Source: Chloroflexota bacterium
GTDB taxonomy: Bacteria; Chloroflexota; UBA11872; VXOZ01
NCBI GenBank assembly: GCA_963663275.1
Contig: OY760183.1
Span: 3,360,001-3,424,000 of the forward strand
Length of the DNA: 64,000 bases
Direction: 5' to 3'
Within the stretch, counting starts at the first letter, position 1; every line of letters starts with the position of its first letter. Of this stretch, positions 7,954 to 62,917 are shown in pieces. The notes below the pieces were generated by a model. It worked only from the letters and a program-made list of their open reading frames with translations. It ran no database searches and was not told the origin of the DNA. A program made the translations under genes and the position numbers.

Positions 7954-8026
7954 GCCCCCGTAGCTCAGTGGACAGAGCAACTGCCTTCTAAGCAGTTGGT
8001 CGGGTGTTCGAATCACCCCGGGGGCG
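7954..8026 (+). tRNA. tRNA-Arg (anticodon TCT)
   Basis: Acceptor stem GCCCCCG/CGGGGGC, D arm GCTCAGTGGACAGAGC, anticodon arm ACTGC-CTTCTAA-GCAGT, T arm GGGTG-TTCGAAT-CACCC; CCA not encoded; TATAAT at 7926-7931. Confidence 0.96.
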
Positions 8027-40999: not shown

Positions 41000-41171
41000 G
41001 AACCTGTTTACTATCTGCTTATGAGGGAGTTAGCAAAGCCGATAAAGACCGTTCGTGCTGAGCCTGTCGAAGCATGAACGGCTATTCGCCACCTTGCAAC
41101 GGCTCCGTTCACCCTTCGACAGGCTCAGGGCGAACGGTCCTCGTGCAGACAAAATGATCGTAAACAGGCTC
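41000..41171. mobile_element. MITE-like element family 1, second copy
   Basis: GAACCTGTTTAC...GTAAACAGGCTC with TAA on both flanks; internal sequence homologous to 7748-7919. Confidence 0.78.
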
Positions 41172-41964: not shown

Positions 41965-43278
41965 TCAGCGTCCCACCACGGTGTCCATGCCCACCAGCGG
42001 CACGTTGGTGATCAGCGAGGCTTCCAGGCTCAGGGCGCGCAGGTCTTCGGCTTCCAGATCGTGCACGTTCGCTTTGCCGCAGGCCCGCGCCAGCAGTTGC
42101 ATCTCCTGCGTCAGCGTGCCGATGAAGTTCGCCAGGTGGTGCGCGGCGTCCTCGAAACCCGGCAGGTCGGCTACCGCCGCGCGCTCCCGGTCAACGGTGG
42201 AATCCTCGCCCGCGCCGGATTTGTGCGCCGCGCCGCCGTCATGCGGCGCGCCGTCCCGTTCGTCGCCGCAGACCGTCTGCCGCGCCCAGGGTTCCAGGGA
42301 AACGAGCGCGGCGGTGCCAATCGAAACGGCGTCCGCGCCCAGGGCCAGGGCTTTCGCCACGTCGGCACCGCTGCGGATGCCGCCGCAGAGGATCAGATTG
42401 ACCTCGTCCTCCAGCCCCAGGTCCTGCAGCGCGCGCCGCGCCTGGCAGACCGCCGCCATGCCGGGCACGCCGGTGTGCTCGTTCAGGATCGCCGGGCCGG
42501 TGGAAGCGCCGGCTTCCATGCCCTCCACGGTCACGATGTCCGCCCCGGCCTTGGCCGCAAGCTGGACGTCGTCGTAGACGTGGGCGGCGCTGATCTTCAC
42601 GATGATCGGCGCTTGCCAATCGGTGGCTTCCCGCAACTCCTCCACCTTCTTGGGCAGGTCGTCAGACCCTACCCAATCGGGGTGCCGCGTCGGCGAATGG
42701 GAAAGCCGCGAGTAGGCCGTCTCCTCCACCGCCCGCGCCGATTGCGCCGCGCCGGAGCTATTGCCGTAGGGCATGCCGATACTGGGGCTCACGCCCCGCA
42801 CGCTGACAAGCTCGATCACGTCGGCCTGGAGCAGGTGCCGCGGCTGGAAGCCGCTGCGGTGCGGCAGCACTTCATAGGAGAGCAGCGACGCGTACGCGCG
42901 TTCTTCCGCCAACATGCCGCCGTGGCCGGTGGTATAGAGAATGCCGGCGCGGGCGGCGCCGTAGGCCAGCGCGGCGCGCACGGCCGGCGGCAGCAACTTC
43001 GCGCCCATGCCCGCGATGGTCACCGGCGTGCTCAACTCCAGCGGCCGCGCGGCAAAGCGCGCCCCCAGGGCGGTGGCGGTGGTGCACTGCTCGTAGAACG
43101 CCTCCAGGGGCACGCGGCTCAGGGAGCACGGGATGAGCGTGAGGTCGTCGAACGTGGGCAGATTGCGGGACCTGCCCGCGCCCCCTACGCGAAAATGCCC
43201 GGTTTCCGCTTTCTCTTGTATTTCGGCGTACACCTGCGGGGTATAGGTCGCGCCTTCCGTCTCTTCGGTTGCTGCCAT
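41965..43278 (-). CDS. FMN-binding glutamate synthase family protein (GlxD/MgsC-like), divergent
   Basis: FDDL....SLSR.PLE, RHPDW, ELREATDW..PI.VK, GGIRSGADVAKALALGADAV, ARACGK...HDLE.EDL. Confidence 0.85.
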   Translation of the reverse strand: MAATEETEGATYTPQVYAEIQEKAETGHFRVGGAGRSRNLPTFDDLTLIPCSLSRVPLEAFYEQCTTATALGARFAARPLELSTPVTIAGMGAKLLPPAVRAALAYGAARAGILYTTGHGGMLAEERAYASLLSYEVLPHRSGFQPRHLLQADVIELVSVRGVSPSIGMPYGNSSGAAQSARAVEETAYSRLSHSPTRHPDWVGSDDLPKKVEELREATDWQAPIIVKISAAHVYDDVQLAAKAGADIVTVEGMEAGASTGPAILNEHTGVPGMAAVCQARRALQDLGLEDEVNLILCGGIRSGADVAKALALGADAVSIGTAALVSLEPWARQTVCGDERDGAPHDGGAAHKSGAGEDSTVDRERAAVADLPGFEDAAHHLANFIGTLTQEMQLLARACGKANVHDLEAEDLRALSLEASLITNVPLVGMDTVVGR

Positions 43279-43286
43279 GGCCGGTA

Positions 43287-43511
43287 TCAACCTCCGGCGC
43301 CTGGGGCGCTCTCTGGGCCGGCGGCGCCAAACGTGCGGAACGGACGCCCGTGCGCCAAGCCGGCGGCGGCGACGATTGCTTCCACGCGCGCGCTCTCTTC
43401 CGGCGTTAGCTCCATTTCCACCACGCCTTCGCCAAGTTGCTCCACCGCGCCGCCGACGAAGATGCGGCCGCCGTTCATGCCGTGGCCCAGCCGCTGGCCG
43501 GCGTTGCCGGT
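43287..43511 (-). pseudogene. 3' fragment of a GXGXG-motif protein (GlxC/GltB3-like); 5' part missing at the junction
   Basis: TGNAGQRLGHGMNGGRIFVGGAVEQLG in the frame of ORF 43287..43622, directly upstream of the GlxD-like gene. Confidence 0.72.
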
Positions 43512-44592
43512 AGCGGCTGAGCTCCAGCCGGGGGAGCCCCTCCAGCGCGCCGGAGACCGTGTCCCAGTCGGCGAGCGGCGCGGGGAAGCCCATCGGCAGG
43601 GCCCCGCGCTCCTCCTTCGCAAGGCGCATCTTCTCCGCGCCGCCTTCCACGTGCCGCGCCGCCTCGACGGTCTCGGAGGGCTCGTTCATCACCACGACGA
43701 CGTCTTCCGGCAGGTGGTCGAGCAGCGTGTGACGCAGCAGGAAGCCGGCGTAGAACGAGGCGTTGTCCAGCGACACCCCGGCGAGCAGGTCGGCCAGTTC
43801 GTCCTGGATGCGGTCGCGCTCCGACGTTCCCGTGTTGGCGAAGTCCAGACCGCGTATCAGTTCGTCGATCCGCTCGTGGTCGGCGATCAGGGGAAGCGTC
43901 TCTCCGGCGGGAAGCACCGTAACCGAGTCCAGGTGCTCGCCGGACCGCTGCGTGTTCGCGTCGAACGCGCGGATCGAGTCGACCTCGTCGCCCCACAGGT
44001 CTATCCGCACGGGGCGGTCGTGCCCCGGCCCGTAGACGTCGACGATGCCGCCGCGCCGCGCCACGGCGCCGGGATGGTCCACCATCGACCCGACGGCGTA
44101 GCCCATGCGCGCCCAGCGGGTCAGCATGGGCTCGACGGCGAGGCGCTGTCCGCGCGTGAGCGTGTGCATCGCGTCCCGCAGCACGGCGGGCGGGAGCGTC
44201 TTCTGCAGGATGCCCGTTACCGACGCGACGATGAGCGCGGGCGCGCCGGCCGTCTGCTGCAGGGCGCCGAGGGCGCGGATGCGCTCGTGCACCGTCCCCG
44301 CTTCCACGGAGAGCCGCTCGTACGGCAGCACCTCCGCCTCCGCGAAGTGCAGCAGCGGAGCGTCCTCGCCGCAGTACGCCTCCAGCTGGTCGAGCAGGCG
44401 CCGCGCGTCGTCAGGATGGGGACAGAGCACCAGCATCGGGCGTCGGAGGTCGCGCCACAGTCCCGCGATCACGAGGGGTTTGGCCGCGTCCGGCGCGACG
44501 GCGGCATGGACGCCGCCGGACGCCACCGCTTCCGTCGTCCGCCTGTAGGCTGACGCCTGCCCAAGCACATCCAGCAGTCCCGTGAGGCTCAA
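43510..44592 (-). pseudogene. mfd: 5' third of transcription-repair coupling factor, truncated
   Basis: E.LPYE, ER.RAL, GY....V..PG..ARRGGIVDV, RIDLWGDEVDSIR.FD..TQRS (UvrB-homology module); no RID, translocase or TRCF domains follow; TTG start after GGAGG. Confidence 0.88.
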
Positions 44593-44754
44593 GCGGTCCC
44601 TCCGTGCTGTCGCGATAGACGCAGACAAGCGCCCCACGCTCAGATATCGAGGGACGCACTCGTCGCCGGTTAGCCCCGGCATGGGGTTGAGTGTAACAGG
44701 CCGCGCTGTCTCGTTGACGGAGCGGGGGCGCGTCGCTAATGTTCCCTGAGGGTT

Positions 44755-46386
44755 ATGTCGCTTTCACGCTCCCTCCCCATCGCCCGTCTCGCGGCGGTCG
44801 CCTCGTGGCGGCTGCTGCCGTGCGCCGGACTCGCGTGCGCGGCGCTTCTCGTCGCGTCGGCGTGCAGCACGGACGAGCCGACCCCTACTCCTGCGCCTGA
44901 GCCGACGCCGACCCCCACGGTCACGCCGACGCCCGTGCCGACGCCGACGTTCACGCCCGCGCCTCCAACGGCGACGCCGACGCCGAGCCCGACCCCCACC
45001 GCCACTCCGGTCCCGCCGACGGCGACGCCCACTCCCGTTCCGCCCACCCATACGCCCACACCCATCCCGCCCACGCGCACTCCCACGCCGCCGCCCACCG
45101 CAACGGCAACCCCGACCGCCACGGCCACTCCCCTCCCGAAGCCGTGGACCGCGTTCAGGCCCGGCTGGTGGCGTGTGGACGTGGACGTCGTCCCCGGCGT
45201 GTACGTGAGCGAGAGCCTCACCCGGAACTGCGAGTGGATCCGCGCGCATAACGTCCGTGCCCGCGAGGGCGAGGTCATCGCCTCCGGTTCGGCGGACAGC
45301 GGCGTGTTGCGCGTGGCGGTCCTGCCCACCGACACGGCCATCATCACCTCGACCGGCTGCGGCACGTGGACGCTCGAAACGCCCGCAAGCAACCCGCCGC
45401 CCCAGGACTCCGCCTTCTCCCGGCGCAATCAGCCCACGATGCTGAGCAGCAGCGGCGACCACACCTGCGCGCTCCGGCCGGACATGACCGTCGTCTGCTG
45501 GGGGAGCGATGTCTACGAACAGTCGTCGCCCGAGAAGCTCAAGGACAAGAACGACGAACCGCTCCCTCCGGAGGAGCTGCTCTTCACGTCCATCAGCGCG
45601 GGCAGTTTCAACACGTGCGGACTGCGCCCGGACCTCACCTTGCTCTGCTGGGGCGACGACAGCGAAGGGCAGTCGACCCCGCGCGTGCGGGCCACGCCCG
45701 GTATCGGCGATTTCTTCATCGGCCTGGATGTCGGCGCGCTCCACGGGTGCGCGGTGCGCCGCGACTTCACTCCCGTCTGCTGGGGCAGCAACGGGCCTCA
45801 ACTCGCAGGCGTCCCGACTCCCACGCCCGCCAGCACCGACCCGGACTACTGGGACGGCCTGAAGCGCGCCGACCCGCCGCCGAACGAGCGGTTCGACGTG
45901 ATCAGCAGCGGTGGCCAGCACACCTGCGCGCTCCGCAGGGACGGCTCCGCCGTCTGCTGGGGCGACGCTCGCTACGGGCAGACCACGCCGCCGGAGGGCG
46001 GTAAGTACACCGCCATCAGCGCCGGCGGGCTGCACACGTGCGCCATCGATACGGACGGGGCAGCCGTCTGCTGGGGTGCCGACGGGATGGGACAGGCGTC
46101 GCCGCCGCAGGGGGTCAACTTCGGCGCTGTCAGCAGCGGCATCCGGCATACCTGCGCGCTGCGGTCTGACGGGGCAGCCGTCTGCTGGGGCAGCGACGCG
46201 CAGGGGCAGTCGTCCCCGCCGGACCCGGACGCCCGGTACGCGGCCATCAGCAGCGGCGGCGTGCACACCTGCGCGTTGGAGGTGCACGGGACGGCGGTCT
46301 GCTGGGGACGGGATGCGTACGGCCAGGCGTCGCCGCCGGAAGGCGAGAAGTTCGCCGTGGGCCGCACGGGAGCGGTGCAGGGCTGA
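44755..46386 (+). CDS. Lipoprotein with Pro/Thr-rich stalk and seven RCC1/BLIP-II-like repeats
   Basis: LVASAC lipobox, PTPT tract, seven repeats of S.G..HTCAL..DG..VCWG. Confidence 0.85.
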
Positions 46387-46480
46387 GCCTTCGGAACCTG
46401 GTGACATCCGCCTGTTGCGCGTTCCGGCGCCCGCCTGACATGATGTCTCCGGCGGCACAGGACGGAGCGACACGTCGGGG

Positions 46481-46520
46481 AGAGCCCCGGTCTGAGAGAG
46501 ACCGGGGCTCTTTCGCGTTT
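46481..46520 (+). terminator. Intrinsic-terminator-like hairpin upstream of the portal gene
   Basis: Perfect 13-bp stem AGAGCCCCGGTCT/AGACCGGGGCTCT followed by TTCGCGTTT. Confidence 0.68.
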
Positions 46521-46566
46521 CGCGAACGTGCGCCGCACACACAGGGACCGGCAAAGGAGGCTGGAG

Positions 46567-47742
46567 ATGCTGGAAACGTTGCGGGAAGTTATGGACGGTA
46601 TCGCGGTGCGGCGGGCGAATGCCCCGCTTGCCGCGTCGCTGCGGACGCTCGCGCCCGACAGGGGCGTGGGGCAGGAGTGGCAGTCGACCGGCTACGGCGA
46701 GTACTACGCGAGGAGCGCCGACGTATACGCGGCGGTGAAGCTCCGTGCGGAGGCGGCGTCCCGTCCGCCGCTGCAGGTGCGGGAGGTCGATGCCTCAGGC
46801 GCGTGGCGCTGGGTGGGGCCGGAGCATCCGGCGCAGCGGCTGCTCGATACGGTCAACGGCTGGTGGAGCAGGAGCGACCTGCTCATCGCCACGGAGACGT
46901 ACCTCTGCTTGTGGGGCGCCGCGTTCTGGTACCTCGGACGCTCGGCGAAAGCGTCAGCGTCCGGCGCGCCGGACGAGATATGGGCGCTGCGCCCCGACCG
47001 TGTGCGGGTCGTGCGCGACCCGGAGCGGTACGTCGCGGGGTTCGTCTACGAGGAGCGGGGACGGGAGACAGCGCTCTTGCCGGAGGAGGTGGTCTGGTTC
47101 CGCTACTTCAACCCGCTGGAGGAGTTCGCCGGGTTCGCGCCGATGGCAGCCGCGCGGCTCACCGCCGACATGGGCATGGACGCGCTGCGGTTCAACCGCG
47201 AGTTCTTCCGCAACGGCGCGCAGCCGCAGGACCTCGTCTTCCGTGCGAGCGGGCCCGTCACCGACGGCCAGCTCACCGAGTTCTTCTCGAAGCTGGAAGC
47301 CCGCCACACCGGGCCGGGCCGGGCGCATCGACCGCTCGTCACCGGCGACGCCTGGGAAGTGCAGCGGCTGGGGCTGAACCAGCGGGACATGGAGTGGCTC
47401 GCCGGACTGCGGTGGAGCCTGGAGGGCGTCGCGCGCGTATACGGCGTCCCGCTGCCGCTGCTGGAGGACTTCAGCCACGCGACGCTCAACAACGTGCGGG
47501 AGGCGCGCCGCATGTTCTGGGAGAAGACGATGGTACCGGAGCTGACGTTCCTCGCGAGCGCGATCAACGAGGGCCTGATGCCGAGGCTCGGCCCGTCGGC
47601 GCGGGGGCTGTCCGTGGCGTTCGACCTCACGCAGGTCGAGGCCCTGTCGGAGACGGAGAGCGAGCGCACCAAGCGGCAGGTGGCGCTCGTGCAGGCAGGC
47701 ATCCTCACGGCGGAGGAGGCACGACGGGAGCGCGGGCTCTAG
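46567..47742 (+). CDS. Phage portal protein, HK97 family, solitary
   Basis: VYAAV...A, HP...LL, L.L.G.AFW, LRPDRV, EEVVWFR..NP.....G.APM, FF.NGA.P, VARVYGVP..LL, T.NN, GILT..EAR...GL; RBS AAGGAGG. Confidence 0.9.
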   Translation: MLETLREVMDGIAVRRANAPLAASLRTLAPDRGVGQEWQSTGYGEYYARSADVYAAVKLRAEAASRPPLQVREVDASGAWRWVGPEHPAQRLLDTVNGWWSRSDLLIATETYLCLWGAAFWYLGRSAKASASGAPDEIWALRPDRVRVVRDPERYVAGFVYEERGRETALLPEEVVWFRYFNPLEEFAGFAPMAAARLTADMGMDALRFNREFFRNGAQPQDLVFRASGPVTDGQLTEFFSKLEARHTGPGRAHRPLVTGDAWEVQRLGLNQRDMEWLAGLRWSLEGVARVYGVPLPLLEDFSHATLNNVREARRMFWEKTMVPELTFLASAINEGLMPRLGPSARGLSVAFDLTQVEALSETESERTKRQVALVQAGILTAEEARRERGL

Positions 47743-47772
47743 CCCCGCTCGCGCCCGTCCGGCGTCGCCCCG

Positions 47773-48510
47773 TCATGCGGGAGGAACACCCGTGGCGGGG
47801 CAGAGGTGGTCATAAGCGCTCTTGAAGTCTGCGAGGGTGTCGATGTCGGTCCAGAAGAGGCCCTCTATGTCGCGCGTCGTGACTCCGCACGGCGTGTTTG
47901 CCAGGTGCTGCATCACGCGGCTCAGCTCCAGTGCAGCGCCATCCTGCGCATAGAGGTGGTCGAGGGTGGCGAAGATGGACGGCTGGAAGACGAAGACGCC
48001 GATGTCCACGGCGTTCCAGCGCCGCAGCCCCTTGCCGATGCGCCGGAGGAAGCCGTCGCCGTCCACCAGCACCTTCGTCGCGTCGCTCAACTGGCTCTCC
48101 ATCGACGCAGCCGAGTCCACGCCCAGCATCGCCGGATGCTCGCACTCTCCCATCAGCCGGACGGCAACACCCGGCTCGATGATGTGGTCGCTCATCGCCA
48201 GCATGAACGGCCCGCCTCCCGCGAAGTCCCGCGCGGCGCGGACCGAGACCGCGTTGCCGCCCTCGAACTCCGGGTTGTGGATGAACTCCAGCCGCACCCC
48301 GTCGGGCGCCCAATCGACGAGTCCTTCCATGATCTGCTCCGCCCGGTAGCCGACGACGATGCCGACCTCCCTGATGCCTGCCTCCGCCATGGCGGTGAGC
48401 GGGTACCAGATGAGCGGACGCTCTCTCAGATGTATCAGCGGCTTCGGCGTCCGGTACGTGAATGGCCGGAGTCTGCCGCCGTCACCGGCAGCGAGGATCA
48501 CTCCCTGCAT
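47773..48510 (-). CDS. Nucleotidyltransferase (phosphocholine/inositol-1-phosphate cytidylyltransferase-like)
   Basis: ILAAGDGGRL, PKPL, GNAVS, MSDH, DATKV, VDIG.F, WTDIDT..D; RBS AAGGAG. Confidence 0.88.
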   Translation of the reverse strand: MQGVILAAGDGGRLRPFTYRTPKPLIHLRERPLIWYPLTAMAEAGIREVGIVVGYRAEQIMEGLVDWAPDGVRLEFIHNPEFEGGNAVSVRAARDFAGGGPFMLAMSDHIIEPGVAVRLMGECEHPAMLGVDSAASMESQLSDATKVLVDGDGFLRRIGKGLRRWNAVDIGVFVFQPSIFATLDHLYAQDGAALELSRVMQHLANTPCGVTTRDIEGLFWTDIDTLADFKSAYDHLCPATGVPPA

Positions 48511-48615
48511 GGCACGCTCCTTCAGCGTTGTGCTATAGAAGCCTCTCCGCCGGGGGATGGCGGAAGGCGGCGCCCTCATGCTCGCGAGGGCGTGTGAGAG
48601 AACAGCCTGAGGCGG

Positions 48616-50646
48616 TTAAGCCCTGGCCAGCTCCTGGGACCCCTCCACTATCTTCGGAGTCAGGTGCGCAGGGACCTCGCCGTAATGGTCGAACTGCATG
48701 GAGAGGGTCCCGCGTCCCTGTGTGAGCGCGCGCAGATGGGTGGAGTACTGCTGCGCCTCCGATTGAGGCACCTCGGCCTCGATGTGTGCGACGCCGCCCA
48801 CCGGGGTCATGCCCGATATGTGCGCGCGCCGTGTATTCAGGTCGCTCACCACCGCGCCGGCGAACTGCTCCGGCGTCTCGATGGCCATGCGCATCACCGG
48901 CTCGAGCAACGTGGGGGAGGCTTCCACGACTCCTTTCTTCATCGCCATGCTGCCGGCTATCTCGAAACTCTGGCCGGACGAGTCCACGGAATGCGAACTC
49001 CCGTCCGTGAGGACGACCTTCACGTCCACGATGGGGAAGCCCGCGAGTGCGCCCTCCTCCATCGTCTTGTGTATGCCCTTCTCCACGGCGGGGATGTACT
49101 CGCGCGGCACGTTCCCGCCTACGACCTCGGAGGCGAACTCGAAACCCTCGCCCCTGGCGCGGGGCTCCAGCCGGAGCAGCACGTGCCCGTACTGGCCGTG
49201 GCCGCCGGTCTGCTTCTTGTGCTTGTATTCGACGTTCGTTGTCCGGGAGATGGTCTCGCGGTACGCCACGCGCGGCGCGGCGAGCTCCAGCTCGACGCCG
49301 AACTTCCGCTTCGCGCGCTCCGCCATCACTTCTACGTGCGTGTTGCCCTGGCCCGCGATGACCAGCTCGGACGTCGCCTGGTCGCGGTTGAGCACCAGCG
49401 ACGGGTCTTCTTCCGTAAGCCGGGCGAGCGACGAGGAGAGCTTCTCCAGGTCGGCCTTGCTCTTGGGGTGCACGGCGATGCGGAAGACGGGCTCCGGGTA
49501 CTCCACGCGGGGCAGCGAAATGGCATCCGCCTTGGAGGTGAGCGTGTCTCCGGTGACGGCGTGCGCCAGTTTCGAGACGCTGCCGATGTCGCCGGCGGCG
49601 AGGCTCGCGACGCTCTCCTGCTTCTTGCCCACGGGAACGAACACCTGCCCGATGCGCTCGGTGTTGCCCGATCCGGTGTCGAACACCTCGCTGTTCGCGG
49701 AGAACGTGCCGCTCATCACGCGGAAGAACGAGAGCTTGCCGACGAACGGGTCGGCGGTCGTCTTGAAGATGAAGGCTGCGAGCGGGCCGTTCGCGTCGGC
49801 GGTCAGTTCCACGTCCGCGCCGCCCTTCGTGGCCTGCACGGCCGGTACGTCGGCAGGGGAGGGGACGTAGCTCACGATGGCGTCCATCAGCTCCCCGATG
49901 CCCAGTTCGGTGGTGGAAGAGCCGGCCAGCACGGGGACGGTCTGCCCTGTGCGGACGCCGATGCTCAGCCCCTGGGCTATCTCCTCGTCGCTGAGCTCGC
50001 CTTCGTCCAGGAACTTCATCGTCAGGTCGTCGTCGGTCTCCGCTACGGCCTCCCCGAGCTGGTCCTTCGCCGTTGCGATGGCGTCCTCCATCCCGGCGGG
50101 CGCGCTGCCCGAGACGCAACTGGCGACGCCGCTGAAAGAGGACTCCGCGCCGATGGGGAGGTTGATGGGCGCGCACCGGCTCCCGAACTGTGAGCGGACC
50201 TGGGCCATCGTGGCCTCATAGTCGGCATGCTCGCGGTCCATCTTGTTGACGAAGACGATGGTGGGGATGCCTAGGTCGCGGACGCGTTGCCACGCGATCT
50301 CCGCGCCGACTTCCACCCCGCTGGGGGCGGAGAGCACGATTACCGCGGCGTCGGCGGCGCGCAGCGCGGAGACGGTCTCGCCCAGGAAGTCCGCATAGCC
50401 GGGGGTGTCGATCACGTTGATCTTCACGCCCTTCCAGACGCACGGGAGCACTGCGAGCTGCAGGCTGGTCTGCCTGCGATGTTCTTCAGGCTCGAAGTCG
50501 GAGGCGGTGTTGCCGTCCTCGACACGCCCCGGCCGGTTGATGGCCTGGGTCGCGTGGAGCATCGCTTCGGCGAGTGACGTCTTGCCTGCGCCTGAGTGCG
50601 CCAGGAGTACTATGTTGCGGATCTGCTGCGTCGTGAATTGGTCCAC
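48616..50646 (-). CDS. fusA: Elongation factor G-like protein (EF-G2 type)
   Basis: IRNI, AHSGAGKTS (non-canonical G1), DTPGYADF, NKMD, EEDPS, YRETI, KKQTGGHGQYG, LLEP; GTG start. Confidence 0.93.
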   Translation of the reverse strand: MDQFTTQQIRNIVLLAHSGAGKTSLAEAMLHATQAINRPGRVEDGNTASDFEPEEHRRQTSLQLAVLPCVWKGVKINVIDTPGYADFLGETVSALRAADAAVIVLSAPSGVEVGAEIAWQRVRDLGIPTIVFVNKMDREHADYEATMAQVRSQFGSRCAPINLPIGAESSFSGVASCVSGSAPAGMEDAIATAKDQLGEAVAETDDDLTMKFLDEGELSDEEIAQGLSIGVRTGQTVPVLAGSSTTELGIGELMDAIVSYVPSPADVPAVQATKGGADVELTADANGPLAAFIFKTTADPFVGKLSFFRVMSGTFSANSEVFDTGSGNTERIGQVFVPVGKKQESVASLAAGDIGSVSKLAHAVTGDTLTSKADAISLPRVEYPEPVFRIAVHPKSKADLEKLSSSLARLTEEDPSLVLNRDQATSELVIAGQGNTHVEVMAERAKRKFGVELELAAPRVAYRETISRTTNVEYKHKKQTGGHGQYGHVLLRLEPRARGEGFEFASEVVGGNVPREYIPAVEKGIHKTMEEGALAGFPIVDVKVVLTDGSSHSVDSSGQSFEIAGSMAMKKGVVEASPTLLEPVMRMAIETPEQFAGAVVSDLNTRRAHISGMTPVGGVAHIEAEVPQSEAQQYSTHLRALTQGRGTLSMQFDHYGEVPAHLTPKIVEGSQELARA

Positions 50647-50772
50647 GATAGGCGCCTCCCCTGTAACGCCGGAGTGGGTTGTGCAGCGCATAATAGTTAT
50701 CAGGCCATGAACGTGCAACGCACAAACGGCAGAGCAGCCGCGGGCGCCCTCAAGTTGAGACAAGGCTGACCG

Positions 50773-52041
50773 ATGCGTGCGCTGACGGGCAACCTTACGC
50801 TCGGCCTGTGGGCGTTGGCGGCCATGCTCCTGATCGCCGCGGGCCTGGGACGCGGCGATTCGGTCGAGCAGCTGCACCGCGCCTCCGCTCCTTACGAGCA
50901 GGACATCCTGCGCTGGGAGATAGTTCACTTCCCGGACAAGTGGTTCAACCTGGCAGTGGGCGTCTTCGGCAGGCCGGACGCGGAGGAACGGCTGGAGCGG
51001 GCGCAGGAGTTCTTCCGTGTGAGCGGGGAGCTGAACGCCAAGCGGCGGGAGATAGAGCGCGTCCTCGCAGAGGGGGCATCGGACGCCGAGGTCGCGCCGT
51101 TGGAGGCGGAGAGAGAACGGCTGGAGCGCCGCCGCGTGGAACTCTCGCCGCTGGTGGAGGAGACGCTGGAAAGCGCCATCTCACAAACCGCCGACGACCT
51201 GGGCGTCATCGCGCGGTTCGGTCCCGGTGCGCTGGCCTCCGGTGGACTTCGCGTTCCAGGAGGGCGGCCACGTGCTGGTGCGCTCGCCCCCGCGACGCCA
51301 TCGTCCGCCTGGACGACCGCCTGCTCACTTCCGACATCAGCCTGCCGGAGCAGGACGAGTTGGAACGGAAGGTGGAATCGCTCGACGACAACATCTCAGC
51401 GATCGTCGCCCGCATCGGCGGGGTGGCGACGTATCCCGCGCAGGTGACGCCGGACACGTCGCTCCGCGGCGCGCTGTTCGTCGCCAGCCACGAGTGGATG
51501 CACCACTGGCTGATCTTCCACCCGCTTGGGACGCGCCTGGTTCGCGGGCGGCGAGCTCACGAGCGTCAACGAGACCGTGGCCAACATCGCGGCGGAGGAG
51601 TTGAGCGACCGGGCGCTGGAACTGCTGACCGGCGAGATGGTAAAGCGCGACCCGTGGCAGCCGCCCAGGGCCGGAGAACCCCGCCCCACGCCCGAGCCGG
51701 GCGTGTTCGACTTCCGGTACGAGATGCGGCAGACCCGCACCCGCCTGGAAGACCTGCTGGATGCAGGGAAGTTGCCGGAGGCGGAGGCGTACCTTGAGGA
51801 ACGCCGCCTGCTCTTCGTGGAGCACGGCTACAACATCCGCAAGCTGAACACGGCGTGGTTCGCGTTCCATGGGACGTACGCGGACAGCTCGGCTGCGCCG
51901 GAAGGGAATCCCGTCGAGGTGCACTTACGCACGATACGCGCCGATTCGGCGGGCCTCGCCGAGTTCCTCGACCGCGTCGCCGTCATCGACGAGGACGGCG
52001 AGTTGGAGCGCATCGCGCGGGAGGCGGGTTGGCGTCCCTAG
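50773..52041 (+). CDS. Hypothetical membrane-anchored protein with HEXXH motif; about three apparent frameshifts
   Basis: A continuous protein can be pieced together from ORFs 50773, 51227 (WPPVDF..LVRSP), 50808 (GGVATYP..HEWMHH) and 51526 (NETVA, IRKLNTAWFAFHGTY). Confidence 0.65.
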
Positions 52042-52079: not shown

Positions 52080-54709
52080 GTGAGGCTGCATTGCTCCCGA
52101 TTAAGCCTCTCGCTCTCCAACTTCCCTCTCCTACCGCGACGCCGCCCCCACGCTCCACCTGGAGGGCGTCCGCGTAGCGTGCCTCTGCGGGCCGAACGGC
52201 AACGGCAAGTCCGCGCTGCTGGACGCCGTGACGTGGGCGCTCTGGGGCAAGGCGCGCGGCCAGCGGCACGAGCAGCTCCTTCACCACGGCCAGACCGAGA
52301 TGCAGGTCGAGTTGGTGTTCGACGTCGGCAGCGAGCGTTACCGCGTGTCCCCGCCGCTACTCCCAGGCGAGGCGCACCGCCCAGAGTTCGCTGGAGCTGG
52401 CGGTCCAAACTGCCAGTGGGGAGTTCACTACTGCGGGGACCGAGGGCACCGGAGACACCATCCGGGAGACCCAGGCGAGGATCGAACGCCTCATCAACAT
52501 GGACTACGGCACGTTCGTGAACAGCGCGTTCCTCGTGCAGGGACGCGCCGACGAGTTCACGATGGCCACCCCTGGCGTGCGCAAGGACGTGCTCGCCAAG
52601 GTGCTCGGCCTTGGGCGGTACGACGAACTCGCGGAGCGCGCCCGCCTGACCGGGGACGCGACGCACGCGCGAAGCTCGAGCGCCACCGCCGTCAACATCG
52701 ACCGCCTGCGCGAACGCGCCGGGAAGGCCGCCGAGACGCGCGCGGCGCTGGCCGAAGCCGAACGTGAACTCGCCGAGGCGGTTACATACGTGAACGGCCT
52801 CGCGGAGCGGCTGCAACTCCTCCGCGGCAAGGTCGCGCACCTCGAACGGCGGCAGGCGGAGCGGGAGGAGCAGGATGCTGCAGGCGCAAGCGCGCGCGCC
52901 AGCGGCAGGCCGAGGAGGAAGCAGGAGGCGGCGAGATCTCAACCAGCGTCTCGTCGGGTGGCAGCAGCACCATCGAGCGCGCCCCGCGAGATCGAGCAGG
53001 GGGTTGCCGCGTTGCAGGGAGCACGCGAACACGAACGGTCGCTGGCTGAGGCGGCGCGGCAGGCGTACGCGCTCCAGACGCAACTCGCGCCGTTGGAGAA
53101 CGCGATAGGGCAGGCCCGCGCCCGGTTGGAGAGCGACATCCAGTCGCAGCGGCAGCACGTCGACACCCAGCTCACGCCGAGGGCGGAGTCGCTGCCCTCC
53201 ATCCAGCGGCAGCAGGACGAGTTGACGGCGCGGCGGGCGGCGATGGAGAGGCCGCCGGGGCGACGCGGAGCGGGCCGAGGAATCGCGGCGGCAACTCGCG
53301 CTGGAGGCGGAAACGCTCCGGCGGGAGAACGAGCGGTTGCAGCAGGCCGGTATGCAGACGCGCGACAAGCTCGACCCTGCTCAACCACGAGCACGAGGAC
53401 GGCGCGGGCCTGTCCCCTCTGCAACAGTACGCTGGGGCCGGACGGCGTCGTCCGCATACGCGAGTCCTACGAGCGCGAGATTGCGGAGCAGCGGCGAGCG
53501 CTACGCCGCGCAGAAGCAACGCGCGGGGCGAACTGGAGCGGCAGGCCGCCGAGGCCGCGGCGGGCGCGGAGCGCGCGCAGAGCGAACTCGCCGCCGAGCA
53601 GCAGCGCATCGCGGAGGAGCAGAGCCGCCTGACCGTGCAGCGGGAGGAGGCGGAGCGGGCCGTGGAGCAGTTGAAGCAGGCCGTACCTCTGCTCCGGCAG
53701 AATGAGGCCGCGCTTGCGAACCGCGCGTACGCGCAGGATGAGCAGGCGGCGGCGAAAGGGTTGCGGGAAACAGCTTACCGTGCTCTCGTTCGACCCCGCC
53801 GCGCTCAATGCCGCGGAGGCGCAGGTGCAGGAACCTCATCCACTGGGAAGAGGAGCGGCAGGCGCTCGTCACGGCGCGCGAACGCATGGATGACGATACC
53901 GCGGCCCTCGAGGCGTGCCCGCGCCCGTGCGTCGGAGGCGGCGAACGACGCCGTTCGCGCCGAGCAGGCGAGCGCTGCGATAGCGGAGGAGCTGGCGGAA
54001 CTGCCGTCGTGGAACGCGCAGCGTTCGGGCAGGTTGAGGAGCGAATGGCAGAGCCGCTTCCGACCGGCACGCGATCAAGTTGGAGGCGCACAAGGGCTCG
54101 ACTGAAAGAGCGAGATGCAGCAGATCGAGCAAGACTGCCGCCGACCTTGCGCAGGCCGAAGCCCGGCGGGAAACGCTCACCGGCGAAGCGGGCGCCTACG
54201 CGGAGCTTGCGCTCGCGTTCGGCAAGGGCGGCGTGCAGGCGCTTCTGATGGAGGCCGCCATCCCGCGCCTGGAAGACGAGGCCAACGACCTGCTCCGCCG
54301 CATGACGGACGGCAGGATGACGCTGAAGCTGGAGACGCAGAAGGAGCGCAGGAGCGGCGGCGACGCGGTCGAGACGCTGGAGATCGTCATCGCGGACGAA
54401 CTCGGCTCGCGCGCCTACGAGATGTTCAGCGGAGGCGAACGCTTCCGCATCGACTTCGCCGTGCGTATCGCGCTCAGCAAAGTGCTCGCGTGGCGCTCCG
54501 GGGCGCCGCTGCCCACGCTCTTCATCGACGAGGGGTTCGGTACGCAGGACGCCGAGGGGCGCGACCGCATCCTGGAGGTCATCCAGGCGATCGAGGACCG
54601 GTTCGAACGCATCCTCGTCATCACCCACATGGACGACATCAAGGACGCGTTCCCGGTGCGCATTGAGGTCACGCGCGGGCCGAACGGCTCGACGTTCTCG
54701 CTCTCCTGA
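52080..54709 (+). CDS. sbcC: SbcC/Rad50-like SMC-family ATPase, multiply frameshifted in this sequence
   Basis: Walker A GPNGNGKS..LDA.TWALWG, Q-loop F.NS.FL.QG..DEF, CPLC zinc hook, FSGGE signature, LFIDEGFG, VITH, spread over several frames. Confidence 0.85.
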
Positions 54710-62698: not shown

Positions 62699-62840
62699 TG
62701 GCCCGAATCTTGTGACATGCGCCCCTTACGCAATCGCCCTTGCTCGTCCTACCATGGGTTCCGGCTTCGGGGCTGGGAACCGGCGCGGACCGTCCGGGGC
62801 AGTCAGGAGCGCGCTGGCGGAGACGCGTTGTCAAAGGTGA

Positions 62841-62917
62841 AATGAGACTGAATGAGAAGAAATGAGACACTTTTTTCGCAGCGCACGCCTGACGGCTTCA
62901 CGGCGCACGCCTGACGC
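62841..62917. repeat. Phased direct repeats
   Basis: AATGAGA at 62841, 62851 and 62861, then GCGCACGCCTGACG twice. Confidence 0.65.

Follow-up and report, generated by a model that had tools for sequence, protein, structure and literature searches.

Few lineages are known to possess domesticated phage particles that serve the host, and how these arose is a matter of debate. The closest described systems are gene transfer agents (GTAs) of the type found in Rhodobacter capsulatus (RcGTA), viriforms with vertically inherited, phage-derived head genes that are under purifying selection, occupy more than one locus and share a common control. In RcGTA, this control is not known to work by a leader hairpin. 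Encapsulin-type nanocompartments consist of an HK97-fold shell and its cargo, with no portal, terminase or prohead protease. Phage-inducible chromosomal islands of the capsid-forming type (cf-PICIs) are presented, in the accessible parts of two reports (10.1101/2025.02.11.637232, PMC10085698), as capsid-making satellites that use phage tails; they carry terminase, portal, protease, capsid and connector genes, no tail genes and a repressor-type regulator at the head. Here we compare with these systems a portal gene at positions 46567-47742 (plus strand) of a 64,000-nucleotide stretch of contig OY760183.1 (assembly GCA_963663275.1, Chloroflexota bacterium), hereafter the window. The gene encodes a 391-aa protein of the HK97/RcGTA type and is probably part of a domesticated, co-regulated and tail-less set of head genes that is chromosomally inherited in SAR202-like Dehalococcoidia. 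In our best reading, the set comprises a large terminase, the portal, an S78 prohead protease, an HK97/T5-type capsid protein and a trio of neck proteins, to which a helix-turn-helix (HTH) protein and a 143-aa protein are added in the clade of the portal. G-, L- and X-numbers label genomes, loci and public sequencing runs, respectively; G000 is the assembly carrying the window and g1 is its nominal genus.

The open reading frame (ORF) starts at ATG 46567, six bases past the ribosome-binding site AAGGAGG (46554-46560, plus strand, as read from the sequence), and its 391 codons are open up to a stop codon that ends at 47742. The initial annotation had described an intact 391-aa portal ORF with a strong ribosome-binding site and a composition like that of its neighbours. 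Both statements hold, as the GC content by codon position (0.71/0.51/0.91) and the codon-usage score (140.9 over 391 codons) resemble those of the adjacent genes. The start it gave, 46387, is abandoned: this is the first base past the upstream stop, it takes in a leader of 180 nt, and the frame has stops before 46528. The Pfam domain PF04860 (Phage_portal) matches residues 52-389 along profile positions 2-320 of 321 (E = 1.2e-60; 205.9 bits versus a cut-off of 39.1), which places the protein in the HK97 family of portals over the whole domain. When its profile is compared with the sequences of the PDB, the RcGTA portal Rcc01684 is the nearest solved portal (E = 5.7e-35), followed by the HK97 portal (1.2e-27). 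An AlphaFold2 model built from 48 homologues has a predicted local distance difference test score (pLDDT) of 67.5, i.e., moderate confidence, with several loops below 50. With this model, the best Foldseek matches are 6toa and 8cez (E ~1.5e-18, probability 1.00, ~356-363 columns), and by fold the RcGTA and HK97 portals tie as the leading solved matches over ~360 residues. The full-length fold, with wing, stem, clip and crown as in solved portals, thus appears to be kept in the predicted structure.

The contig itself is, with near certainty, a chimeric assembly with its joint at window position 43509|43510, the g1 chromosome to the left and a 128-kb SAR202-like Dehalococcoidia block to the right that runs to the end of the contig (G000 3531182). 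DNA synteny with all 16 same-genus genomes ends at 43509. In three relatives, conservation resumes ~4.7-4.9 kb later with the gene that corresponds to G000 189-1212, where the contig begins. From 43510 to the final base, the 128 kb are collinear with other Dehalococcoidia chromosomes at 84-94% DNA identity; collinearity extends over about 124 kb, with matches ~104-123 kb downstream of the relatives' own portals. The joint cuts a 221-aa g1 gene on its left and uvrB on its right. Of the latter, a 5' fragment of the right-hand organism is left (43510-44592, minus strand), which covers the N-terminal ~361 aa including the UvrB_inter domain; in 16 portal loci, identity over the 363-aa N-terminal part amounts to 81-96%. 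An in-frame fusion of this fragment with a Glu_synthase-like gene of g1 results in an artificial 905-aa ORF (41965-44682) with Glu_synthase and UvrB_inter domains. No contig listed from the public runs crosses the joint. A 2855-nt contig of run X3 (depth 91, 0 differences) matches up to 43509 and continues with 1499 nt unlike the window, a contig of run X2 likewise stops at 43509, and run X1 gives the mirror image from the right. Depth in run X3 amounts to 20-112 in the bins from 41609 to the joint and to 0.2-11 in most bins to its right, where higher-depth bins (up to 64) occur over 44817-45217 and the portal; stretches of the window to which no contig matched were left out of the argument. 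The block carries housekeeping genes (RuvC, UvrA, RelA/SpoT, a release factor, HolB, His genes, LeuRS), and for seven of the 12 tested ones a second copy is present in the left part of the assembly at 45-52% identity, which fits the contamination estimate of 5.26% for this assembly.

Alternatively, the 128-kb block including the portal could be a real horizontal insertion into the g1 genome by the replication origin. This would agree with the single 3.53-Mb contig, with the occurrence of both sides at ~99% identity in runs X1 and X2, and with five of the 12 tested housekeeping genes (UvrA, RuvC, NuoA, HolB and the uvrB fragment) that have no good second copy in the g1 part. Nonetheless, the block reaches the very last base of the contig in collinearity with foreign chromosomes, one gene is truncated on each side, three contigs stop exactly at the joint while none listed bridges it, the depth in X3 drops rightward, and the duplicated genes share only 45-52% identity. 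An insertion is therefore quite improbable.

A chimeric contig changes what its nominal relatives can tell. None of 16 genomes of the same genus and none of 24 of the same class gave a match to the portal protein, which suggested a recent acquisition; this is ruled out, as these genomes are relatives of the left part only. The initial annotation had named absence at this locus in relatives as evidence that would count against its proposal of a host-retained system. Such absence was indeed seen at first look, only because the nominal relatives are not those of the portal. Similarly, its premise that the source genome contains nothing else of the kind was based on a chimeric contig with only 128 kb of the portal's native genome, so the lack of partner genes in the assembly is uninformative. 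Family searches of the whole assembly with PF05065, PF03354, PF04586 and PF03237 gave 0 matches each, and the same four models missed an unrelated head cluster in G000 at 325-337 kb that was found with PHROGs. With the native genome outside the assembly and a real head cluster missed, these searches for capsid, protease and terminase carry no information on the portal's partners. The practical warning is that a single-contig assembly can be a chimera and that absence in relatives then misleads.

Homologues of the portal form a tight clade at 61-97% identity, after which there is a gap down to ~50%. Taking one genome per species, 33 portal loci occur in metagenome-assembled genomes labelled Dehalococcoidia, SAR202 or 'Chloroflexota', and 18 of them share the order of the window: RCC1, portal, nucleotidyltransferase, EF-G, small ORFs, an SbcC-like gene, CMD and a methyltransferase. 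In addition, uvrB is present in 16 portal loci and LeuRS in all nine that reach that far. Not a single internal stop occurs in 34 portal coding sequences. The median ratio of nonsynonymous to synonymous divergence (dN/dS) of the portal is 0.084 for 189 pairs with dS 0.05-0.7 (Nei-Gojobori, own script), a figure from which L025 was left out because its dN of 1.53 is an artefact of a gapped tblastn segment. Medians for the neighbours are 0.084 (EF-G paralogue), 0.127 (nucleotidyltransferase) and 0.159 (RCC1). The dS of the portal follows that of EF-G (Pearson 0.89, 153 pairs). Synteny over 18 loci, the absence of stops, the low dN/dS and the dS correlation with EF-G together indicate a vertically inherited and strongly constrained gene. 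Two of the checks proposed in the initial annotation, i.e., orthologues with locus synteny in relatives and a dN/dS far from 1, have thereby been carried out and speak in favour of its proposal.

Partner genes were searched in the 19 chromosomes behind the portal loci, 15 of the close clade and four of the group at 50% identity. All 19 contain exactly one portal, one PF05065 capsid hit with one S78 protease gene directly upstream of it, one 272-aa protein that matches the head-tail-adaptor family phrog_442, and large-terminase homologues. The capsid gene (441 aa) is of the HK97/T5 type with a scaffolding-type N-terminal extension, has T5 pb8 as its nearest solved relative and is 51-61% identical across the order. 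The neck trio consists of 153-, 272- and 95-98-aa proteins; compared with PDB sequences, the 153- and 273-aa neck proteins have no match at E up to 0.1. Whereas encapsulins lack portal, terminase and prohead protease, all three are conserved with the capsid here.

The set occurs in two forms. In the contiguous form (G055, G048, G049, G050, G051), the partner genes lie within 2-5 kb of the portal, in the order HTH and 143-aa gene (divergent), large terminase (phrog_2, E = 1e-32), portal, protease, capsid, and the 153-, 272- and 98-aa genes. These blocks, annotated in L035 and L041, are interspersed with cellular genes, an insertion sequence and a leucine-rich-repeat gene. The portal stands between terminase and protease in the sister-clade loci L035-L038 and L040-L043, and this order of terminase, portal, protease and capsid is that of the HK97-like head operon, whose portal gp3 also shares PF04860 and the fold. 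In the dispersed form, found in the clade of the window, the genes are distributed over four or five loci that are up to 1.1 Mb apart. In G041, for instance, a leader-bearing terminase is located at 0.795 Mb, protease and capsid at 1.450 Mb, the portal at 1.677 Mb, the HTH and 143-aa pair at 1.884 Mb and the neck trio at 1.900 Mb. Unlike the gene of HK97, the portal of the window is monocistronic, with its own leader and no terminase or protease beside it; neither in the window nor in the 18 syntenic loci is the order terminase-portal-protease encountered, the portal being flanked by cellular genes. For the order of G041 as a whole, an even sample of 151 genomes contains the portal in 56 and the capsid in 52 cases: 50 genomes have both, six only the portal, two only the capsid and 93 neither. 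The listed genomes without portal and capsid are small (1.3-2.7 Mb). The tail families PF10145, PF04984 and PF06199 (tape measure, sheath and RcGTA-type tube) were found in 0 of 5 genomes each in this narrow search, and no tail genes lie beside any annotated head module.

Such a content recalls a cf-PICI-type satellite, i.e., a mobile island with its own small capsids that takes tails from a helper phage, of which the solitary portal would be a piece. Terminase, portal, protease, capsid and neck proteins without a tail found form a satellite-like packaging module, and an HTH regulator with an ImmA-like neighbour heads the block, in line with the capsid-making, tail-borrowing satellites described in the available parts of the reports cited above. 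In the clade of the window, however, there is no contiguous mobile island: the genes are spread over four or five fixed loci separated by as much as 1.1 Mb, 18 species representatives share the synteny of the portal locus, the divergence of which parallels that of EF-G, and each of the 19 genomes has one copy. Cellular genes are interspersed, and the annotated blocks contain no integrase or replication gene, for which no genome-wide search was made. What is shared with cf-PICIs is the possession of head and connector genes, with no tail genes found in the narrow search, and not a contiguous island with an integrase and a replication module. We regard a satellite origin of the present set as unlikely.

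The dispersed loci are connected by a leader. In the window, a hairpin with a 16-bp GC stem (46479-46515), followed by a T-rich stretch, occupies positions 46470-46521 (plus strand), and the fold of 46440-46569 has a z-score of -4.99. It is preceded by a putative promoter-like box, GTGACA..GCC..TTGCG, then ~18 nt and CATGAT (46401-46444, plus strand), recognised by comparing upstream regions by eye; variants of this box precede the protease-capsid and neck operons elsewhere. At all 21 loci that have the element and a portal separate from the terminase, the hairpin precedes the portal, and it is also found before the protease-capsid operon (eight protease loci) and the neck trio (seven neck loci). 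Over 29 distinct copies, 98% of the cells are paired, and 35 cells are changed on both sides versus 10.5 in shuffles, with none of 500 shuffles reaching 35. A covariance model of the hairpin (R1), derived from alignment A2 and trained without terminase sites, scores the window element at 63.4 bits (E = 2.1e-15). It was run over five whole genomes (G041, G042, G043, G052 and G055), in which strong matches, defined as 45 bits or more and ranging over 45-65 bits, are confined to sites preceding the genes for portal, protease, neck trio and terminase. Terminase sites number one in G041, two in G042 and one in G043, which has a weak second one; in G055, terminase paralogues are preceded by one match of 46.7 bits and by six weaker ones. 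Matches of 23.6-25.5 bits with no gene assigned are located at G041 974665 and 1494239, G042 17947 and G055 C2:1702275. On 368 kb comprising the window, the tail of the contig and other loci, R1 reports only the portal leader and two terminase leaders, the former being the sole strong match in window and tail. These matches suggest that the dispersed loci are under a common regulation, and the detached pieces appear to have kept or gained the same box and GC hairpin, save for the loci L033, L034 and L045, which have no hairpin. In the latter three (82-86% identity), the portal is detached and the promoter-like box is positioned directly before the ribosome-binding site.

Rfam contains no family for the leader (best E 0.02-0.05, far under the gathering scores). 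As in addition no consensus promoter or terminator was called, its role can only be inferred: the hairpin may be an attenuator that is overcome by an antiterminator. An earlier, hand-written hairpin pattern hit 40 copies of an unrelated g1 palindromic repeat and missed the portal leader, and was replaced by the covariance model. The repeat in question is a ~45-nt family scattered in the g1 chromosome (40 matches, e.g., at 495850, 720376 and 978572). A looser pattern for the promoter-like box matched three times in the 128-kb tail versus twice in 3.4 Mb; none of these matches is followed by a hairpin, so the box is not specific for head genes. Two of them precede a possible small RNA: at window 62714-62900 (plus strand) and G000:C1:3527000-3527253 (minus strand), the box is followed ~100 nt later by a conserved ~45-nt element with three AATGAGA repeats and a T-run, which has no Rfam match at gathering score. 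The RNA run X20 has contigs that cover the portal (46675-47111, 24 differences, depth 7.3) as well as its neighbours; they were not taken as evidence of transcription, since they originate from a relative and libraries of this kind can contain DNA.

Two further explanations were considered. According to the first, the loci are decaying remnants of an ancient prophage, among which a functionless portal has not yet accumulated lesions. Fragmentation and the interspersed insertion sequence and cellular genes would be in line with decay, as would broken copies (the terminase of G051 is split by TGA and an adaptor-like gene of G049 has TAG) and the six of 151 genomes with a portal but no capsid hit. 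On the other hand, a dN/dS of 0.084 over 189 pairs, 0 stops in 34 portal genes, single copies of four gene families kept in 19 of 19 chromosomes and a leader with compensatory changes at detached loci make decay very improbable. The second supposes that the portal was co-opted alone as a ring or channel that works with its RCC1 and nucleotidyltransferase neighbours and independently of a capsid, similar to the separate cellular role that the initial annotation had offered as its second option. The neighbourhood is indeed stable in 18 loci, and the same six genomes could be cited. Yet, the sister-clade orthologue lies between terminase and protease-capsid, the leader is common to portal, capsid, neck and terminase loci, the full-length portal fold seems to be kept in the model, and the capsid accompanies the portal in 50 of the 58 genomes having either (six and two with one of them alone). 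Given this co-occurrence and the common control element, a separate cellular role finds no support, and we consider it extremely improbable.

The terminase deviates from the single-copy pattern. Large-terminase homologues are multicopy in several of G041-G047 and G053-G055 (loci L073-L076 and L083-L088), with 8-29 matches per genome (13 in G047). Each of these is solitary, 450-640 aa long and located among cellular genes (phrog_2, E = 1e-34 to 1e-45), and many carry the leader hairpin. The copies in G047 share 89-93% DNA identity over ~1.6-2.3-kb units with short repeats at the flanks. Judged from these features, the multicopy unit looks like a mobile one-gene element.

The HTH protein is of the Cro/CI type (PF01381), and its gene is adjacent to that of the 143-aa protein. 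In the Atlas, the clusters closest to the latter are ImmA/IrrE peptidases (score 0.95, 28 of 30 hits). Each of the 15 close-clade genomes has a single copy of both genes; neither was found in the four genomes of the 50% group, except for one weak HTH hit. The pair resembles the ImmR/ImmA-type switches of prophages and integrative elements, in which an XRE repressor is combined with an M78 metallopeptidase, in that an HTH gene adjoins an ImmA/IrrE-like one. It differs from them in the missing Pfam match of the 143-aa protein and the missing HEXXH of its L035 copy, and is a lead only.

Taken as a whole, the system resembles a GTA. Its structural genes are inherited vertically (synteny of 18 loci, r = 0.89, one copy in 19 of 19 chromosomes) and its portal is under purifying selection, as in RcGTA; the use of more than one locus, the apparent common control and the proximity of Rcc01684 are further likenesses. 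In contrast to RcGTA, the core head genes and not only accessory genes are scattered here, the host phylum is Chloroflexota, the three tail families searched for were not found in five genomes, the terminase is multicopy in several genomes and control apparently proceeds via a leader hairpin. The host-retained particle-assembly system of scattered genes that the initial annotation had proposed gains support from single-copy partners in 19 of 19 chromosomes, 18-locus synteny, a dN/dS of ~0.08 and a shared leader.

Several points weigh against a co-regulated, tail-less set. In six of 151 genomes, the portal is not accompanied by a capsid hit, and the related genomes are non-independent samples. 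Tails, a small terminase and lysis genes may exist unseen, since the same type of search missed the head cluster of G000. The terminase partner in the window's clade is one of 8-13 paralogues that are 52-57% identical to the portal-adjacent terminase of the sister clades, and it is from the leader that we infer which copy, if any, serves the portal. As for this leader, strict sigma-70 promoter and terminator consensus scans of 46300-47900 gave 0 and 0 sites, and the T-run of the window copy is interrupted. The 143-aa protein has no Pfam family at E up to 10, and the canonical HEXXH is absent from its L035 copy. Finally, the confidence of the portal model is moderate (pLDDT 67.5).

If the set functions as proposed, a signal would overcome the leader hairpin by antitermination or derepression, upon which the cell would build procapsids around the portal ring and the protease would mature them. 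The terminase might then fill the heads with DNA through a portal of the window type, and the neck proteins would close them. The particles could serve the host in GTA fashion, be it without tails or with tails acquired from phages. More speculatively, and with less confidence than in the existence of the set, SAR202-like Dehalococcoidia might possess a DNA-packaging capsid of a new class, tail-less and owned by the host. Its genes would be scattered and yet tied together as a regulon by a portable promoter-plus-hairpin leader, possibly with an ImmR/ImmA-like switch; the terminase would have escaped in several lineages as a multicopy ~2-kb mobile unit with the same leader, and the particles would move host DNA or pick up the tails of passing phages. 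If true, this would give a major uncultured marine clade, abundant in the deep ocean and in sponges, a route of gene exchange. Intermediate stages stand side by side here, from an unbroken block through one with cellular genes inserted to a set scattered over four or five loci. The leader hairpin offers a simple sequence tag for tracing the whole set in any genome. Two questions thereby become testable in existing metagenomes, viromes and metatranscriptomes: by what course a host takes over and disperses the genes of a phage head while their common control persists, and whether heads without tails can act in gene exchange. The literature, consulted mainly as titles and abstracts, gave no description of such a head-gene system in SAR202 or Dehalococcoidia; a paper matching SAR202 and 'gene transfer agent' (PMC12507015) is, in the part available, unrelated to it. 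The present analysis contributes the portal locus, a leader model that is specific at the scale of the genome, the link to the terminase and the recognition of the chimera.

The direct neighbours of the portal are as the initial annotation had placed them, and were confirmed by Pfam on the ORFs. Upstream lies an RCC1-repeat protein (45175-46386, plus strand, alternative start 44755; PF13540, E = 5.4e-45), a conserved neighbour with 74-95% identity in the 18 related loci. Downstream and convergent are a cellular nucleotidyltransferase (NTP_transferase; 47773-48579, minus strand; PF00483, E = 2.5e-18; 75-97% identity in the 18 loci) and a cellular EF-G paralogue with the EF-G domain set (48616-50928, minus strand, likely start 50646; 81-99% identity in the 18 loci). 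Beyond the latter, the genes up to 64 kb are cellular and include LeuRS, a methyltransferase and an ADP-ribosylglycohydrolase. No further phage family was found among the 22 Pfam-scanned ORFs of window 33-64 kb, a scan that included no integrase-specific search and left 1-33 kb without an ORF-by-ORF scan, and PHROGs revealed nothing phage-structural in the unnamed ORFs near the portal. The statement that no other phage head genes are present thus stands for the window only, while for the assembly it fails on the cluster at 325-337 kb. This second, unrelated head cluster (G000:C1:325300-337200; locus L070 304-12171, minus strand) belongs to the g1 part, lies beside a LexA-like repressor and has host-like codon usage. 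It encodes a terminase-like protein of 517 aa, a portal of 432 aa (phrog_10963, 5e-38), a 664-aa protease-capsid fusion (phrog_4523, 5e-71; PF25209), an SU10-type adaptor and four unnamed ORFs.

A few minor observations were made elsewhere. At window 52499-54709, separate ORFs carry SbcC-like pieces, a weak one at 52499-53632 (phrog_77, 4.6e-5) and a strong one at 54080-54709 (4.7e-33), which may be one long SbcC gene split by ORF choice or a broken gene. In the tail, outside the window, an island of low codon score (G000:C1:3473467-3480664) beside a C-5 methylase fragment resembles a defence island and encodes HATPase_c_3, Z1, DUF4420 (PD-(D/E)XK) and AIPR abortive-infection-type proteins. 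In the g1 part, contigs from three DNA runs pile up at window 41049-41137 (depth 115-970) with many loose ends on both sides, indicating a short multicopy element in an intergenic gap. Lastly, a signal recognition particle (SRP) RNA, cut by the window start, is located at 1-142 and a tRNA at 7954-8026.

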